From Dictyostelium discoideum (taxonomy: Eukaryota), in NCBI GenBank assembly GCA_000004695.1, contig CH709173.1:1-4495 (forward strand): a stretch of DNA of 4,495 bases. Reading direction: 5' to 3'. Shown one piece after another: positions 1 to 4,495 of this stretch. Position numbers and translations under genes: made by a program. Every line of letters starts with the position of its first letter. Position 1 is the first letter of the stretch. The notes under the pieces are model-generated. The model searched no databases. It was not told the DNA's origin and saw nothing but the letters and a program-made list of their open reading frames with translations.

Positions 1-50
1 GATTTTTTTTTTTTTTTTAATTTTTTTTTTTTTTAAAAAAAAATTTTATT
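1..50. repeat. Homopolymer low-complexity tract (T18, T14, A9)
   Basis: Direct reading: gat(t)18aa(t)14(a)9ttttatt. It lies immediately upstream of where similarity of the pseudogene copy to the downstream gene begins. Confidence 0.9.
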
Positions 51-87
51 AACTTACCAGCTATTATTTAATTGGGTATCATTTTAT

Positions 88-767
88 TTTAAAAGAACTG
101 GTGATTGGTTTTGAAAGCATTGATATTATTGATGAAGTTGAAGAAATCTAAAATAATACTTTTTTTGGTTTTTTTTTAGATTAAATTTGCTTTTAAGGGG
201 GGTTTTTCTTCGCTGTGTATGGATTCTATATTTTTAGCAAATTTACCTATCGATGGGCACTTTTTGAGTTACAAATGAAGAGTCAATTTTTTATTTTGAA
301 ATTTATTCAGGTGTTAAATTATTAATTGAAAAAAAAAATTTTTTAGAATATTTAGATTTCTCAAAAGACTATGAGCAGGGGATTTATAAAAATTATAAAT
401 CTGGAGAACAATTTAAAAAAATAAAAAATTCAATTTTATATAAATTTATTTTATTAAGAATATTTATTGACGGAATGAGTCATCAAGGTAGATCAGATTA
501 TACTATAATGGGGGATTTTGAAAATTATGTTGGCCCATTTTTTAAAATATGCCATGCCAACTTAAAAAATGGACTGGAAATAAAATTGTTTTATTTATTG
601 TTCCAAAAGAATGGTTTTACAATATACATCAAACAATTAAAAAATTATTTTCAGCGCAATTTAATAATAAATTAATAATTAAAGATAATAATGGATATGA
701 TTATGAAATTATAACATATGGATTAACAATCACAGCGGCGAAAATCAACACTTTAAAGCACCTTTAA
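88..767 (+). pseudogene. Degenerate partial paralog (pseudogene fragment) of the C-terminal conserved domain of the gene at 2962..>4495
   Basis: Hand translation matches the downstream protein in four segments. (1) 95-150: ELVIGFESIDIIDEVEEI* vs EFLMLGIENSISLKLLEKF. (2) 219-267: MDSIFLANLPIDGHFL vs MDKLFMEDFQIKGETF. (3) 280-534 in one frame: ESIFYFEIYSGVKLLIEKKNFLEYLDFSKDYEQGIYKNYKSGEQFKKIKNSILYKFILLRIFIDGMSHQGRSDYTIMGDFENYVG vs HSIFYFEIKKVLETLLNKKQFFERIDFDTDFETGIYTNYKSGQQFKDLKNKNKNKIVLLRIFTDSMQCQNKKDYTIMLDIENYIG (about 56% identical by eye). (4) 549-767 in a different frame: KIVLFIVPKEWFYNIHQTIKKLFSAQFNNKLIIKDNNGYDYEIITYGLT vs KLLLFVVPNDWLLNFHQTIRALFSSF/GNGFNLIIENEQIDVIPFGLT. The colinear segments are separated by in-frame stops (taa 148-150, tag 235-237, tga 265-267) and a 29-nt net insertion relative to the downstream copy near 530-600. 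Similarity ends at 767, equivalent to about 4160 in the downstream gene. No zinc-finger or N/E-rich region is present upstream. Confidence 0.6.
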
Positions 768-780
768 ATCCAAGTACTCT

Positions 781-960
781 TTTTAATATATATTAATAAG
801 TATACTTAATAAGTAATACTTATTAAGTATACTTAATAAGTATACTTATTAAGTACACTTTATTAAGTATTACTTAATAAGTATACTTATTAAGTATACT
901 TTATAAGTATACTTTATAAGTACTACTTAATAAGTACACTTATTAATATATATTAATAAT
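781..960. repeat. Array of about 11 palindromic decamers AAGT(A/C)(T/A)ACTT with 12-14 bp period, flanked by inverted termini TTAATATATATTAATAAGT(A/G)TACTT
   Basis: AAGTATACTT is its own reverse complement and contains GTATAC. Copies or variants start at about 799, 813, 827, 840, 852, 866, 881, 893, 905, 917 and 932. 783-807 is the reverse complement of 932-956 with one mismatch, so the whole block is roughly self-complementary. Confidence 0.85.
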
Positions 961-1087
961 TAGTTATTATTCTTTTAAATGTTTTATATGGGAATCGAAC
1001 CCGCGACCTCCCTTTTCAGAAGTTCCGCGGATGGAATATTTTAGATGGGAATCGAACCTGTGACCTCCCTTTCCGGAAGTTCCGTTT

Positions 1088-1093
1088 AAAAAA
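1088..1093 (-). terminator. T6 run on the minus strand, 5 nt downstream of the tRNA-like unit: pol III terminator-like
   Basis: Minus strand reads ...TTCGATTCCCATATGCAACA TTTTTT AAACGG. T-runs of 4 or more terminate pol III. The 3' layout (T-loop, 5 nt, 7 nt, 1 nt, T6) mimics a tRNA gene 3' end. Confidence 0.35.
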
Positions 1094-1101
1094 TGTTGCA
1101 T

Positions 1102-1158
1102 ATGGGAATCGAACCCGTGACCTCTTACATACTAAGCTACCATATGAGCTAAATAAGC
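1102..1158 (-). pseudogene. tRNA-like pseudogene or tRNA-derived pol III unit (A-box-like plus B-box; anticodon arm too short)
   Basis: Minus-strand read: GCTTATTTAGCTCATATGGTAGCTTAGTATGTAAGAGGTCACGGGTTCGATTCCCATATG. TAGCTCATATGG resembles the A-box/D-arm (TRGCNNAGNGG), and the B-box follows about 30 nt later. The T-stem has one mismatch (ACGGG/CCCAT). Only about 16 nt lie between the D-arm and T-stem, where about 22 are needed. No 5' acceptor strand is complementary to the 3' side ATGCAAC. Hence not an intact tRNA. Confidence 0.4.
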
Positions 1159-1227
1159 TTTGATTATTTTTCAATATAAATAGCTGAAATATTAATGTAA
1201 AAAAATTAAAAAAAATAATAAAAAAAA

Positions 1228-1357
1228 TGAAACTATAAAACACAAATAAAATGATATGTTTTATTTTTTAATTTAATGTTGTATAAATCTTTGTAAATAC
1301 ACTGAGAAATAATATTCAGAATATTTCTGAAACTATAAAACATAAATAAAATGATAT
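1228..1357 (+). repeat. 30-bp direct repeat pair TGAAACTATAAAACA(C/T)AAATAAAATGATAT at 1228-1257 and 1328-1357 (exactly 100 bp apart, 1 mismatch)
   Basis: Direct comparison of the two copies. A weaker similarity of the following 20-30 nt (tctttgtaaa...gagaaataat vs tctttctgaaaaataat) suggests a diverged 100-bp tandem duplication. Confidence 0.8.
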
Positions 1358-1560
1358 TATATAAAAAATAACATAATCTTTCTGAAAAATAATTTTTTTT
1401 TTTTTTTTATTTTTTTTATTTTTATTTTTTTAGTAATTGTTGACTAAAACCTATAAATATTTTCATTTATGTAACTACTGTATTCTAAACTTTACTACAA
1501 TTATATATTTGATATGTGTTTATTATTAAATTACCATTATAAATTGTAAAAAATTACTTT

Positions 1561-1670
1561 TTTAATTTTTTTTTTTTTTTTTACCTTTTTTTTTTATCTT
1601 TAATTTTTTTTTTTCTTTTTTTTTACCTTTTTTTTTATCTTTTTTTTTTACTTTTTTTTTTTTTCCAAAA
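1561..1670. repeat. T-rich simple repeat, (T)9-14 interrupted periodically by ACC / ATC / AA
   Basis: ...t14 acc t10 atc ttt aa t12 c t9 acc t9 atc t10 ac t14 cc: about 20-bp periodic interruption of poly(T). Confidence 0.85.
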
Positions 1671-1741
1671 TATTATTGATACATTTGTTGTTAAAATACA
1701 TTGATATTATTAAAAAAATTTAAATATTTTTATGTGTGATG

Positions 1742-1775
1742 AAAAAAAATCAAAAAAAAAAAAAAAAAAAAAAAA
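1742..1775. repeat. poly(A) tract (A8 T C A24)
   Basis: Direct reading; A24 uninterrupted at 1752-1775. Confidence 0.9.
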
Positions 1776-1980
1776 TTTAGGAATTTTTTTTTAACACAAA
1801 AAAAAAATAAAAAATTTTGTAATTTTTTTTTTTTTTAACGAAAAAAATAATATAATAAAATAACAATATAAATAATAATTTAGATAAATAATTGAAATAA
1901 AATAAATAATATGAACACAAGAATAAAAATTTAAATAAAAACAAATATGCTTTATTCACAGCAAAGAAAAATGCACCTTT

Positions 1981-2040
1981 AAAGCCAATTTAAAGCAAAT
2001 ACAATTTAAATTGGCTTTAAATTGGCTTTAAATTTGCTTT
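1981..2040. repeat. Inverted repeat built from mirrored 11-bp units: AAAGCCAATTT-AAAGCAAAT | ACAATTT | AAATTGGCTTT-AAATTGGCTTT-AAATTTGCTTT
   Basis: AAATTGGCTTT (2008-2018, 2019-2029) is the reverse complement of AAAGCCAATTT (1981-1991). AAATTTGCTTT (2030-2040) is the reverse complement of AAAGCAAATTT, matching 1992-2000 with a small insertion. A hairpin or cruciform with tandemly repeated arms can form. Confidence 0.8.
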
Positions 2041-2100
2041 TTAAAAAGGTAATTTTAAAGATATTTTTAAGGTCATTTAAAATTACATTAAAAATGACCT

Positions 2101-2161
2101 TTTAAATTTATTATAAAGCGGTTTTTAAATAATGTTTTAATCACTTTATAATAAATTTAAA
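2101..2161. repeat. Perfect 18-bp inverted repeat TTTAAATTTATTATAAAG ... CTTTATAATAAATTTAAA with a 25-bp spacer
   Basis: 2101-2118 is the exact reverse complement of 2144-2161. Adjacent smaller inverted repeats: AAGGTCATTT 2069-2078 / AAATGACCTT 2092-2101; GTAATTTT 2049-2056 / AAAATTAC 2079-2086; near-palindrome GTAATTTAAAATTAC 2177-2191. Confidence 0.9.
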
Positions 2162-2237
2162 AAAGTTATTTTTAATGTAATTTAAAATTACTTATTAATC
2201 CTTTTTTAAGCTTTTATTAATTATATTTTTTAAAATA

Positions 2238-2270
2238 CATTTTAAATGCATTTTAAATACATTTCAAATC
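2238..2270 (+). repeat. 3 x 11-bp tandem repeat CATTTTAAAT(G/A) / CATTTCAAATC
   Basis: cattttaaatg cattttaaata catttcaaatc read directly. Confidence 0.7.
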
Positions 2271-2302
2271 AATTTTTACACTATTTATTTCAAATTTATT
2301 AT

Positions 2303-2375
2303 AAAAAAAAAAAAAAATAAGAAAATAAAAAAAAAAAAAAAAAAATTAAGAAAATTAAAAAAAAAAAAAAACTAA
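2303..2375. repeat. A-rich low complexity with periodic TAAGAAAAT / TTAAGAAAATT insertions
   Basis: a15 taagaaaat a20 ttaagaaaatt a14 ct a5. Confidence 0.85.
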
Positions 2376-2753
2376 AAAGATAACCAAATTAATTTTAATT
2401 CTTTATTTATTTGTTCCAGTGGCAATTGAATTCTATTATTATTATTTTTATTAATTAATAATAAATAAGTGTTTCAGTTGCCTTGGGTTTTATTTTATGT
2501 TATTTTAAATTTTACTTCTCATTTCAAAAAGCGAAAAATATCAAAAAAAAAAAAAAAAAAAAAATTTAATTATTTGTTTTGCATATTTATATTATAAGTA
2601 TAAACATACATATAAAAAAAGATTTTTTATTTTTTATTTTTTATAATTAATAAACAATTAACGAGTGCACAGGTATATTATTGCATTAGTGTAGTTTTAC
2701 AATAAATTGGGCAGATTTTATAGTTTTTTTTTTTTTTATTTTAAAAAGAAAAA

Positions 2754-2830
2754 GGTATAGACAGGGTCATAGGTTCCCCGTCATTTTTTGAAAATGGGGT
2801 ATATCCCTCTAAATATAAAATTTTAAGTAC
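2754..2830 (+). promoter_or_regulatory. GC-containing island with imperfect palindrome CCCCGTCATTTTTTGAAAATGGGG (2776-2799) and TATA-like ATATAAAA (2813-2820); candidate promoter/enhancer of the gene at 2962
   Basis: It is the only G/C-bearing segment in about 500 bp of >90% AT sequence. It lies about 130-210 bp upstream of an ATG in AAAATG context, and TATA-like elements at 2813-2820 and 2851-2857 follow it. No TSS data are available, so this is positional inference. Confidence 0.3.
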
Positions 2831-2961
2831 TAAATCATATATCTACTTGCTATAATGCTAAAATTTGAATAAAATGAAAAAAAAAAAAAAAAAAAAAACG
2901 TAAAAACTCGAGGAAAAAAAAAAAAAAAAATATTATTTTTAATTTCCAGCCAGCAAACAAA

Positions 2962-4095
2962 ATGAATTTAAATAACATATCATGCATTAATTGCAGAGAA
3001 AAATTAAAGAATTTTAAAAATATTATTATTCATTATATTATGCATAAAAATATATGTCCATTTTGTCTTGCATATTACCGTTCTTATAAACAATTTTATG
3101 ATGTAAATGGACATTTCAACACCAAAAAATGTAAAAATGAACAAAATAAAATTATTACAAATAATCAAAAAAGAGATATCTTTTATAAAAAATTAATGGA
3201 TATTACTGGTGAAAAAATAAAATATCCAACAAATGATCCAGATGACCCATGTAAACATTTATGTAACCAAAACCAAGATGAAATTTTTTATCAAGAAAAT
3301 AATGAAAATAATGAAAATAATCAAACAATTGATAATGTAGAAAATCATGATATAATTGGGTTGGTACATAGTGAAGATGAAAACAATGAAATTAGAATAG
3401 ATGAAAATGAAGCAAACATTAATAATGAAAATAATGAAAATAATGAAAATGAAAATGCTCAAAACGAACCAATAAATAATAATCTAAATAATAATTTAGA
3501 TAATGAAAAATCAAAAAAAAAATTAAATGAGACTGAAATTGAATTTTTAATGTTGGGAATTGAAAACTCAATAAGTTTAAAGCTACTTGAAAAATTTAAA
3601 AGTTTTATTGACAAAAATAAAACCAATTTAAATCAAATAAGATACACACCTCAATATATGGATAAATTATTTATGGAAGATTTTCAAATAAAAGGAGAAA
3701 CATTTATAAATAAAAATTATGATCACTCAATTTTTTATTTTGAAATTAAAAAAGTATTAGAAACTTTATTAAATAAAAAGCAATTTTTTGAAAGAATAGA
3801 TTTTGATACAGATTTTGAAACTGGAATTTATACAAATTATAAAAGTGGTCAACAATTTAAAGATTTAAAAAATAAAAATAAAAATAAAATTGTATTACTT
3901 AGAATATTCACTGATAGTATGCAGTGTCAAAACAAGAAAGATTATACTATAATGCTGGATATAGAAAATTATATTGGAAATGAATTTAAAAATAATAAAT
4001 TATTATTATTTGTAGTACCAAATGATTGGTTACTTAATTTTCATCAAACAATTAGGGCATTGTTTTCATCTTTTTTGGTAATGGCTTTAATTTAA
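2962..4095 (+). CDS. Protein with two N-terminal C2H2-type zinc fingers, an N/E-rich low-complexity linker and a conserved C-terminal domain of unknown function (possible transposase-like or domesticated element protein); segment upstream of a -1 frame break
   Basis: 377-codon ORF from the track. ATG at 2962 in AAAATGAAT context, preceded by an in-frame TAA. Residues 8-28: C-x2-C-x12-H-x3-H with a hydrophobic C-x3-L-x5-I-x2-H pattern (classic C2H2). Residues 32-57: C-x2-C-x15-H-x5-C. Residues about 112-186 are an N/E repeat (NNENNENNE...). Residues about 190-377 are conserved with the upstream pseudogene copy. AT3-biased codon usage is consistent with the surrounding genome. Confidence 0.75.
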   Translation: MNLNNISCINCREKLKNFKNIIIHYIMHKNICPFCLAYYRSYKQFYDVNGHFNTKKCKNEQNKIITNNQKRDIFYKKLMDITGEKIKYPTNDPDDPCKHLCNQNQDEIFYQENNENNENNQTIDNVENHDIIGLVHSEDENNEIRIDENEANINNENNENNENENAQNEPINNNLNNNLDNEKSKKKLNETEIEFLMLGIENSISLKLLEKFKSFIDKNKTNLNQIRYTPQYMDKLFMEDFQIKGETFINKNYDHSIFYFEIKKVLETLLNKKQFFERIDFDTDFETGIYTNYKSGQQFKDLKNKNKNKIVLLRIFTDSMQCQNKKDYTIMLDIENYIGNEFKNNKLLLFVVPNDWLLNFHQTIRALFSSFLVMALI

Positions 4096-4495
4096 TTATT
4101 GAAAATGAACAAATAGATGTTATACCGTTTGGACTGACAATGGATATTCCAGAATTTAGAGCATCGTGTAAACTTAATGGACATAATTCAAATGAATATG
4201 CATGTCACACATGTGACAAACCAAGAGATGGTTTATTTATTTGCCATTCAGGTACATTAACAAAACAAGAAGATATTACAAATTTTCACTCCACCAAACC
4301 AAATTATGCTGAATTAAATGCTGATATAGAATTAAAAAAAATATGGGAAAAAAAAGCAAAAGATATTGGTATCAAAGGTGTGGGCAGAGGGTGGGTCGAA
4401 CCTTTGTCCATTAATTATTTAAAAACACAACCAGACATATTACATAATATTTTATTAGGTGTCGCACAAAGATGTTTATATTACAATTTTGATAA
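4056..4495 (+). CDS. Continuation of the same gene in the -1 frame (3' partial, open to the window end)
   Basis: The frame with codons starting at multiples of 3 is open from 4056 to 4495. Its hand translation begins GIVFIFFGNGFNLIIENEQIDVIPFGLTMDIPEFRASCKLNGHNSNEYACHTCDKPRDGLFICHSG... and continues VGRGWVEPLSINYLKTQPDILHNILLGVAQRCLYYNFD. Its start (FGNGFNLII...IPFGLT) is colinear with the upstream paralog (FNNKLII...ITYGLT). One extra T in the run 4071-4076 would fuse it to the 2962 ORF. Confidence 0.55.

Follow-up and report, generated by a model that had tools for sequence, protein, structure and literature searches.

Nested DDT transposon debris in a Dictyostelium discoideum contig and the probable DDT-B origin of an isolated transposase fragment

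DDT elements and the composition of the window

The proteins encoded by Tdd elements are integrase-like, and the thug elements constitute a small family of their own. The DDT-A, DDT-B and DDT-S elements, DDT standing for Dictyostelium DNA transposon, reportedly go back to Glockner et al. 2001. For DDT-B a consensus of 5471 bp with an A/B-box motif within nt 1-428 has been described, together with a 'rearranged' copy consisting of nt 428-1 followed by nt 3291-1646 (Barth et al. 2022, PMC9012585). DDT elements were found to make up about 20% of the centromeres, where later insertions have broken them into many pieces and where they lie clustered with other DDT elements (Glockner & Heidel 2009, PMC2665215). 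According to a 2017 review, no transposase of a D. discoideum DNA transposon resembles the known ones (PMC5633606).

In our study, a stretch of 4,495 nucleotides of D. discoideum contig CH709173.1 (the window) was analysed, which has a GC content of about 20% and long A/T runs. The window is very probably a mosaic of nested DDT pieces, with positions 218-730 as a relic of a DDT-B-type transposase gene (Table 1). Two related element types, A and B, and a short type were recognised at seven comparison loci, which are cited below by their handles (L001, L007 and so on). The B-type elements share the host with the published DDT-B, a complete copy of 5410 bp at L007 is close in length to the published consensus, B-type copies contain a tRNA-like A/B-box motif within their initial 400-500 nt or so, and the copies occur in fragmented, self-nested clusters. 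Moreover, the published rearranged copy and the region 218-1229 have the same topology, an internal fragment followed by nt 1. The two junctions differ in position, and identity of the 730/731 junction with the published one (nt 3291/1) was rejected, the former mapping to about nt 2344/1 in the coordinates of the 5410-bp L007 copy. B-type copies also vary among themselves, the one in the window having three 57-nt repeats and some others two. The B type would therefore be the published DDT-B, a name given on length, A/B boxes and genomic context. The A type (one long ORF between TIRs) and the ORF-less elements of 756-774 bp match the B type in termini and target site duplications (TSDs), and probably represent DDT-A and DDT-S; these two names were assigned by elimination, since Tdd elements and the thug family have the different characters given above. 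The fragment and its neighbours are thus ordinary nested DDT debris of the sort already known for the D. discoideum genome.

Table 1. Features of the window and elements with both termini at the comparison loci
Feature	Location	Strand	Length	Details
DDT-type terminus, outward-facing, left boundary of the fragment	181-217	-	37 nt	5'-CACAGCGAAGAAAAACCCCCCTTAAAAGC...; exact CACAGCNNNGAAAA at 217<-204
Internal DDT-B-type transposase ORF fragment, dead	218-730	+	513 bp	ORF nt 618-1109, aa 207-370 of an about 818-aa protein
5' end of second DDT-B, truncated at about 1229	731-1229	+		element nt 1 to about 500; TIR start CACAGCGGCGAAAATC...
Extremely AT-rich filler, from truncated DDT-B 5' end to DDT-A terminus	1230-1956			10-13% GC; partly repeated elsewhere
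5' half of DDT-A-type element	1957-4495	+		TIR start CACAGCAAAGAAAAATGCACC... at 1957
Complete A-type element	L004 9218-14251		5034 bp	inverted CACAG termini
Complete B-type element	L007 4615-10024		5410 bp	inverted CACAG termini
Complete B-type element	L003 6434-14226		7793 bp	inverted CACAG termini
ORF-less non-autonomous elements	L001 and L002 (four fully resolved), more in L004 and L007		756-774 bp	inverted CACAG termini

Three sites in the window, and no others, carry the sequence CACAGCNNNGAAAA, namely 217<-204 (-), 731 (+) and 1957 (+), and the first two flank the fragment to the base. The similarity of the fragment to other family members ends abruptly because these transposon termini bound it at 217 and 731. 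The left-hand terminus is 84-92% identical to complete DDT-like termini (L001, L002 and L006) and to the DDT-A terminus at 1957-1993. Only its 37 nt resemble known termini, 47-187 being a different repeat. It may have been left behind as a solo TIR, or it may terminate an element situated on its left.

On the right side, 731-1229 showed 86-87% identity to L002 6699-7098 and L001 17848-17504 and maps to the L007 B element from nt 1-214 onward; homology to DDT-B 5' ends ceases at about 1229. It contains a palindromic array at 789-959 (TRF, period 13 nt, 12.9 copies), which is part of the DDT-B terminal repeats and recurs at both ends of complete copies, and a 57-nt repeat with 2.6 copies at 977-1124 (TRF), the third copy extending to 1148. 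Each 57-nt repeat carries one perfect B box, GGTTCGATTCC, on the minus strand (991-1001, 1048-1058 and 1105-1115), and an A-box-like TAGCTCATATGG lies at 1151-1140 in the third copy. Together these motifs occupy nt 261-421 of the element end beginning at 731; in the complete 5410-bp L007 copy the B boxes are located at nt 391, 447 and 520. Among all loci checked the B boxes were restricted to B-type 5' ends, and in the window they occur only within 731-1229. No tRNA was detected over the window by ARAGORN or by Rfam, the latter giving only sub-threshold miRNA/sRNA matches on the palindromes; tRNA genes were rejected, and the tRNA-like pieces are the A/B-box repeats. The A/B boxes carried by the DDT-B 5' end are Pol III boxes, which attract TRE5-A.

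The fragment at 218-730 and how it was shaped

The fragment corresponds to nt 1860-2344 of the complete 5410-bp B copy at L007, which served as reference element, and is 94-97% identical at the nucleotide level to B-type ORFs (L002 10618-11109 and L001 16810-16323). When translated, it shows 86-92% identity with proteins of the B type, in comparison to 46-51% with those of the A type. In a codon-aware comparison with an intact B ORF the identity was found to be 96.1% with 19 substitutions, which fall on the three codon positions as 5/7/7 and comprise 12 nonsynonymous and 7 synonymous changes, numbers too small to be interpreted. None of the substitutions is a nonsense change. The three in-frame stops reported in the initial annotation come only from reading through the frameshifts, of which there are two. 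A net 29-nt insertion (21+8) at about 548-583 had already been recognised correctly, and a 5-nt deletion after position 274 had been missed. The fragment spans the first catalytic-Asp motif (LLRIFxDG) and halts just before the second, the break falling between GLT and MDIPEF. Lacking both a start and an end, and with two frameshifting indels, it has no function of its own.

The following course of events is proposed for this arrangement. DDT elements would move by cut-and-paste with 5'-CACAG TIRs and 2-bp TSDs, landing preferentially in other DDT copies, and the DDE transposase responsible would be a remote relative of the Tnp2/CACTA-Mirage-Chapaev lineage. A resident DDT-B would have been interrupted at ORF nt 617/618 by the element whose terminus ends at 217, and the same copy at ORF nt 1109/1110 by a second DDT-B with its nt 1 at 731; the piece left in between would further have gained the 5-nt deletion and the 29-nt filler insertion. 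A DDT-A-type copy begins at 1957, and its transposase gene is the gene lying downstream of the fragment.

Both junctions probably arose by insertion and not by recombination or deletion. In both cases the break coincides precisely with the first base of a terminus that looks intact, which is predicted by insertion and not by random breakage, and in comparison with the intact B sequence the flanks TA at 218-219 and AT at 729-730 are compatible with 2-bp TSDs. These two observations make it unlikely that the fragment owes its shape instead to recombination, abortive gap repair or aberrant transposition among DDT copies, an explanation which nevertheless draws on several features of the locus. 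The other halves of the interrupted DDT-B are absent from the window, neither junction's TSD is visible there, and the second DDT-B is itself truncated. A joining of internal sequence to nt 1 is known from the published rearranged DDT-B, and the 29-nt filler in the fragment resembles a repair scar. Further, an independent B copy at L001 has lost internal sequence, and the right-hand edge of this deletion is placed 1 nt from the 217/218 junction of the window, an agreement which is not predicted by simple random insertion.

With insertion as the preferred reading, the same observations may point to self-homing of DDT-B, since breaks no more than 1 nt from ORF nt 617/618 are seen in two independent copies and since two cases are at hand in which internal sequence is joined to nt 1. 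A search for ORF nt 617 as a recurrent insertion site showed no break in three further B copies, the ORFs of which are contiguous. If DDT-B does target its own kind, this DNA transposon would be following a 'safe-haven' strategy in a haploid genome that is dense with genes.

The transposon family and the affinity of its transposase

The conceptual product of the downstream ORF, with one frameshift repaired, was used as query for the family search. The significant relatives numbered 35. They come exclusively from D. discoideum or D. cf. discoideum and are named only 'hypothetical protein' or, in one case, 'C2H2-type domain-containing protein'. The relatives form two identity classes, A with 79-95% and B with about 44% identity to the downstream gene, and 24 A-type and 14 B-type protein clusters were counted. 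Full-length proteins are about 814-865 aa long in A and up to about 818 aa in B, and the transposases of the two classes are about 44-50% identical over their full length.

All termini examined start with CACAG, apart from one short copy with CACAT, and the A, B and short elements have common termini of the form CACAGC..GAAAA..CTTTAAAGC. The dinucleotides on the two sides of the element were found to match in 8/8 complete elements (TA, TT, TT, TT, TG, TA, GG and CA), with an estimated chance of a match of about 0.1 per element in this composition, and they are therefore taken as 2-bp TSDs; the third flanking base differs in the one pair checked (L001 13036-13809). The conserved ends and TSDs around full-length copies, which the initial annotation had suggested looking for, are thus present, and its view of a repeated family with a transposable-element protein as the first candidate was right, as shown by the number of relatives, the anatomy of the complete copies and the remote relationship to Tnp2/CACTA-type transposases. 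Each of the seven comparison loci contains several family copies or fragments, in most of them among RVT/Phage_integrase/Integrase genes; most of these loci are rich in DIRS-1- and Skipper-type genes, and the family copies are mostly frameshifted.

A second candidate named at that time was a rapidly duplicating gene family, which would here be a host family of zinc-finger proteins, outside any transposon, with one live and one dead member in the window. The names carried by the database members are compatible with it, as is the failure of direct Pfam scans to give a transposase match. It is however highly improbable, because the ORFs are contained in units that end in inverted CACAG termini and are flanked by 2-bp TSDs, because ORF-less derivatives of about 760 bp have the same ends as the ORF-bearing units, because the copies, most of which carry frameshifts, are found within DIRS-1/Skipper clusters, and because profile-profile comparison shows homology to Tnp2-domain proteins. 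For annotation this is of practical importance, as newer D. discoideum assemblies list dozens of family ORFs as 'hypothetical protein', often with invented introns bridging the frameshifts.

The lineage of the transposase was approached through profiles. Direct Pfam hmmscan of the window proteins and eight family members gave no transposase domain and nothing meaningful, a profile search against PDB sequences gave 0 matches, and an AlphaFold2 model from a 16-sequence alignment was unusable (mean pLDDT 38). A remote search with a profile of 13 family members against 1.8 billion representatives recovered weak relatives at E 1e-8 to 1e-3. The Pfam domains present among 50 remote relatives were Transposase_21/Tnp2 (7), DUF1258 (5), DUF4218 (2) and one weak DUF5817, with no others. 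Alignment of the family with this remote set by hhalign gave a probability of 99.8% and E 1.5e-28 over 524 columns including the Tnp2 region, values which are to be read with the set having been recruited by the family's own profile. In this alignment the invariant D328, D405 and E619 (P0005 numbering) correspond to the invariant D320, D409 and E671 of the Tnp2-containing set, and C425/C428 and a His of the family fall on its invariant CxxC and H.

Taken together, the aligned profiles point to a remote membership of the transposase in the CACTA/Mirage/Chapaev (Tnp2) lineage. The resemblance to the CMC superfamily (CACTA/En-Spm, Mirage and Chapaev; Pfam PF02992 Transposase_21, DUF4218 and DUF1258) extends over termini beginning 5'-CAC, short TSDs and subterminal arrays, and the conserved D...D...CxxC...H...E residues of the DDT-type proteins align with those of Tnp2-domain proteins. 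Mirage elements have TSDs of 2 bp. From the CAC-initial TIRs, the 2-bp TSDs, the subterminal arrays and the profile homology, a DDE cut-and-paste mechanism of CACTA/Mirage/Chapaev type can be predicted. On the other hand, no DDT-type family member reaches the Pfam threshold directly, the third motif reads D-I-L-H-N-I-L-L-G in comparison to the plant DxMHxExN, the family protein has an N-terminal zinc finger and an Asn/Glu-rich linker, and its significant close relatives, where named, are confined to D. discoideum and D. cf. discoideum. No paper linking DDT to EnSpm/CMC or classifying DDT was found in a literature search. The CACAG TIRs, the 2-bp TSDs and the remote Tnp2/CMC homology would give DDT a mechanistic home, if confirmed against curated repeat libraries, and CMC affinity together with the TIR/TSD anatomy is a modest side result of this study. 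That DDT is a divergent Dictyostelium branch of CMC (Tnp2) and that DDT-B in addition homes into sister ORFs at preferred positions is, as a joint proposal, tentative and rather doubtful.

The downstream gene and its likeness to the fragment

In the initial annotation the region 88-767 had been described as a decayed, truncated second copy of the C-terminal domain of the downstream gene. A truncated and non-functional relative colinear with that gene does lie upstream of it, but its span is 218-730. Within the window, blastn aligned 218-730 with 3657-4141 at 65% nucleotide identity (E 1e-48). Comparison by tblastn gave matches in two frames, one of 90 aa with 55.6% amino-acid identity and one of 57 aa with 42%, in good agreement with the roughly 50% given earlier, and the zinc-finger and N/E-rich regions are missing from the fragment as had been noted. 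The homology claimed for the flanks is at chance level, with z=0.2 for 88-217 against 3535-3700 and z=1.8 for 731-767. The T18/T14/A9 tract, after which the copy was said to start directly, occupies 1-45 and is separated from the true start by about 170 nt, and the homology stops at 730 and not at 767, where a decamer array had been placed; the array is that of 13-nt period described above. The fragment also derives from the middle of the protein and not from a C-terminal domain, since the end of the window cuts this gene short at aa 511 of about 815.

Local or segmental duplication, in which a piece of the downstream gene would have been copied 2.2 kb upstream and have decayed there to about 50% amino-acid identity, is scarcely credible. 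The colinear arrangement of the two regions on the same strand within 4.5 kb is what gave rise to this idea, but the fragment is 96% identical at the nucleotide level to B-type ORFs at unrelated loci in comparison to 65% to its neighbour, and is therefore no decayed copy of the latter. The identities within the family are bimodal and the fragment falls in the B mode; transposon termini coincide exactly with both of its ends; and decay to 50% amino-acid identity should have left many stops, as against the 0 nonsense substitutions that were found. Neither the 'second copy of the same gene' nor the segmental duplication considered at first is consistent with closest relatives at other loci. The roughly 50% amino-acid identity to the downstream gene, as judged from the sequences compared, is an old divergence of the A and B subfamilies and not local decay; between A and B a dN of 0.43 and a dS of about 0.98, near saturation, were obtained. 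The window is repeat DNA, and the adjacent 'gene plus dead paralogue' is no evidence for a new gene family or a recent duplication. Chance likeness between AT-rich, low-complexity, coding-like sequences can be dismissed outright in spite of a genome of about 20% GC and of the 88-217 extension being indeed at chance level, as the local-alignment score of 218-730 (124) was far above that of shuffled sequences (23.4 +/- 3.5; z=29) in the very test which had been named beforehand as a possible refutation, and the independent B copies agree with it.

The downstream gene is part of the DDT-A-type element, which has 97.8% identity to L001 9007-11431. Its 5' terminus at 1957 is the same as in the complete 5034-bp L004 element, where the inverted 3' terminus matches at 73%; a subterminal hairpin-rich region extends to about 2190 and the transposase ORF starts at 2962. 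This copy had been regarded as intact. However, in comparison to two other A copies (L001 and L004) its ORF is without one A at 4075 (TTTTATTGG -> TTTTTTGG), and this 1-nt deletion causes a frameshift. The ORF runs into a stop at 4095, and coding sequence can be followed in frame 3 from 4077 as far as the end of the window. The window is 98%, and not 100%, identical to AX4 DDB_G0294224 and to P0001. Within the filler that precedes the element, 1405-1783 matches L007 2083-1687 and 4342-4071 at 80-83%.

Fragment 218-730 and the DDT-B 5' end

The left junction of the dead DDT-B fragment, at 217|218 of the window, has a close counterpart in L001, one of the other D. discoideum loci carrying DDT-like elements (L001-L007). 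An independent DDT-B copy in that locus has lost ~880 bp internally, from the 5' untranslated region up to ORF nt 617, and the right breakpoint of this deletion (16809-16811) was found only 1 nt off the window junction. The sequence on the far side of this breakpoint is unrelated, and the region of ORF nt 617 is unbroken in three other B copies. Further, the fragment carries a net 29-nt insertion at 548-583 (…AAAATATGCCATGCCAACTTAAAAAATGGACTGGAAAT…), which has no equivalent among the A or B copies examined and resembles filler DNA left by repair or the footprint of an excision.

The 13-nt-period array is self-complementary (arms 780-860 and 879-959, 89%) and was found in both DDT-B terminal inverted repeats (L003 13669-14226 and the element ends in L007), the 3' arrays being the longer. 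It may be a store of putative subterminal repeats for transposase binding. The Rfam matches to miRNA at this array were weak and are attributed to chance.

A perfect tRNA B box (GGTTCGATTCC) is present in every copy of the 57-nt repeat, joined in the third copy by an A-box-like motif; no tRNA was found at 977-1160 by ARAGORN or Rfam. These repeats agree with the published A/B-box motif in DDT-B nt 1-428, which attracts TRE5-A (PMC9012585). The number of repeats differs among the copies, with two in L001 and three each in L002 and the window.

Coordinates of repeats, short elements and second called genes
Feature	Sequence	Positions
57-nt repeat, 2.6 copies	Window	977-1124, third copy to 1148; within 977-1160 (minus strand)
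13-nt-period array (TATACTTAATAAG), 12.9 copies	Window	780-959
Short ORF-less elements	L001	13036-13809, 15366-16121
	L002	8043-8801, 8841-9599
	L004	about 21345-22097
	L007	313-1066
Sites of flank repeats	L007	1077-1212, 3521-3615, 1687-2083, 4071-4342
Second called gene	L003	12610-13532
	L004	12676-13630
	L005	8603-9522
	L006	8600-9526
	L007	8460-9384

Short elements and flanking repeats

Elements of about 750-775 bp without an ORF share the CACAG termini and 2-bp TSDs of the DDT elements and are probably the published DDT-S. They are inserted in DDT-A copies, in DDT-B copies and in the neighbourhood of one another. The flanks of the DDT pieces in the window (47-187 and 1405-1783) are also repeated, at 78-83% identity, close to DDT termini in L007. 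Positions 88-147 can be read as the end of a short acidic ORF (KELVIGFESIDIIDEVEEI*), which is probably the source of the mistaken alignment made there in the initial annotation.

Transposase genes and the DDT-A terminus

The downstream A-type gene had been taken as intact; this does not hold, as one A is missing at 4075 in comparison to L001 and L004 (TTTTATTGG to TTTTTTGG, 4071-4095) and the ORF ends at a stop at 4095, after which frame 3 carries the coding onward. Either the gene is a genuine pseudogene or the missing base is an error of sequencing.

DDT transposase genes are annotated as 'hypothetical proteins' in recent D. discoideum assemblies (family proteins P0005 and P0028-P0033), in gene models where frameshifts are bridged by invented introns. 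P0005 (L004 9917-12549) spans the overlapping ORFs 9917-11443 and 11413-12549, and its model leaves out the DILHNILLG motif. Directly 3' of the transposase ORF, within both A- and B-type elements, a second gene was called, with a product of about 190-275 aa and no recorded Pfam match; by analogy with CACTA elements it may encode a second element protein.

In the DDT-A terminal region (1957-2200), nested hairpins were observed at 1967-2043 and about 2068-2194, along with repeated (C/A)TTTAAAG(C) motifs common to all DDT-type termini; both are candidate transposase-binding sites.
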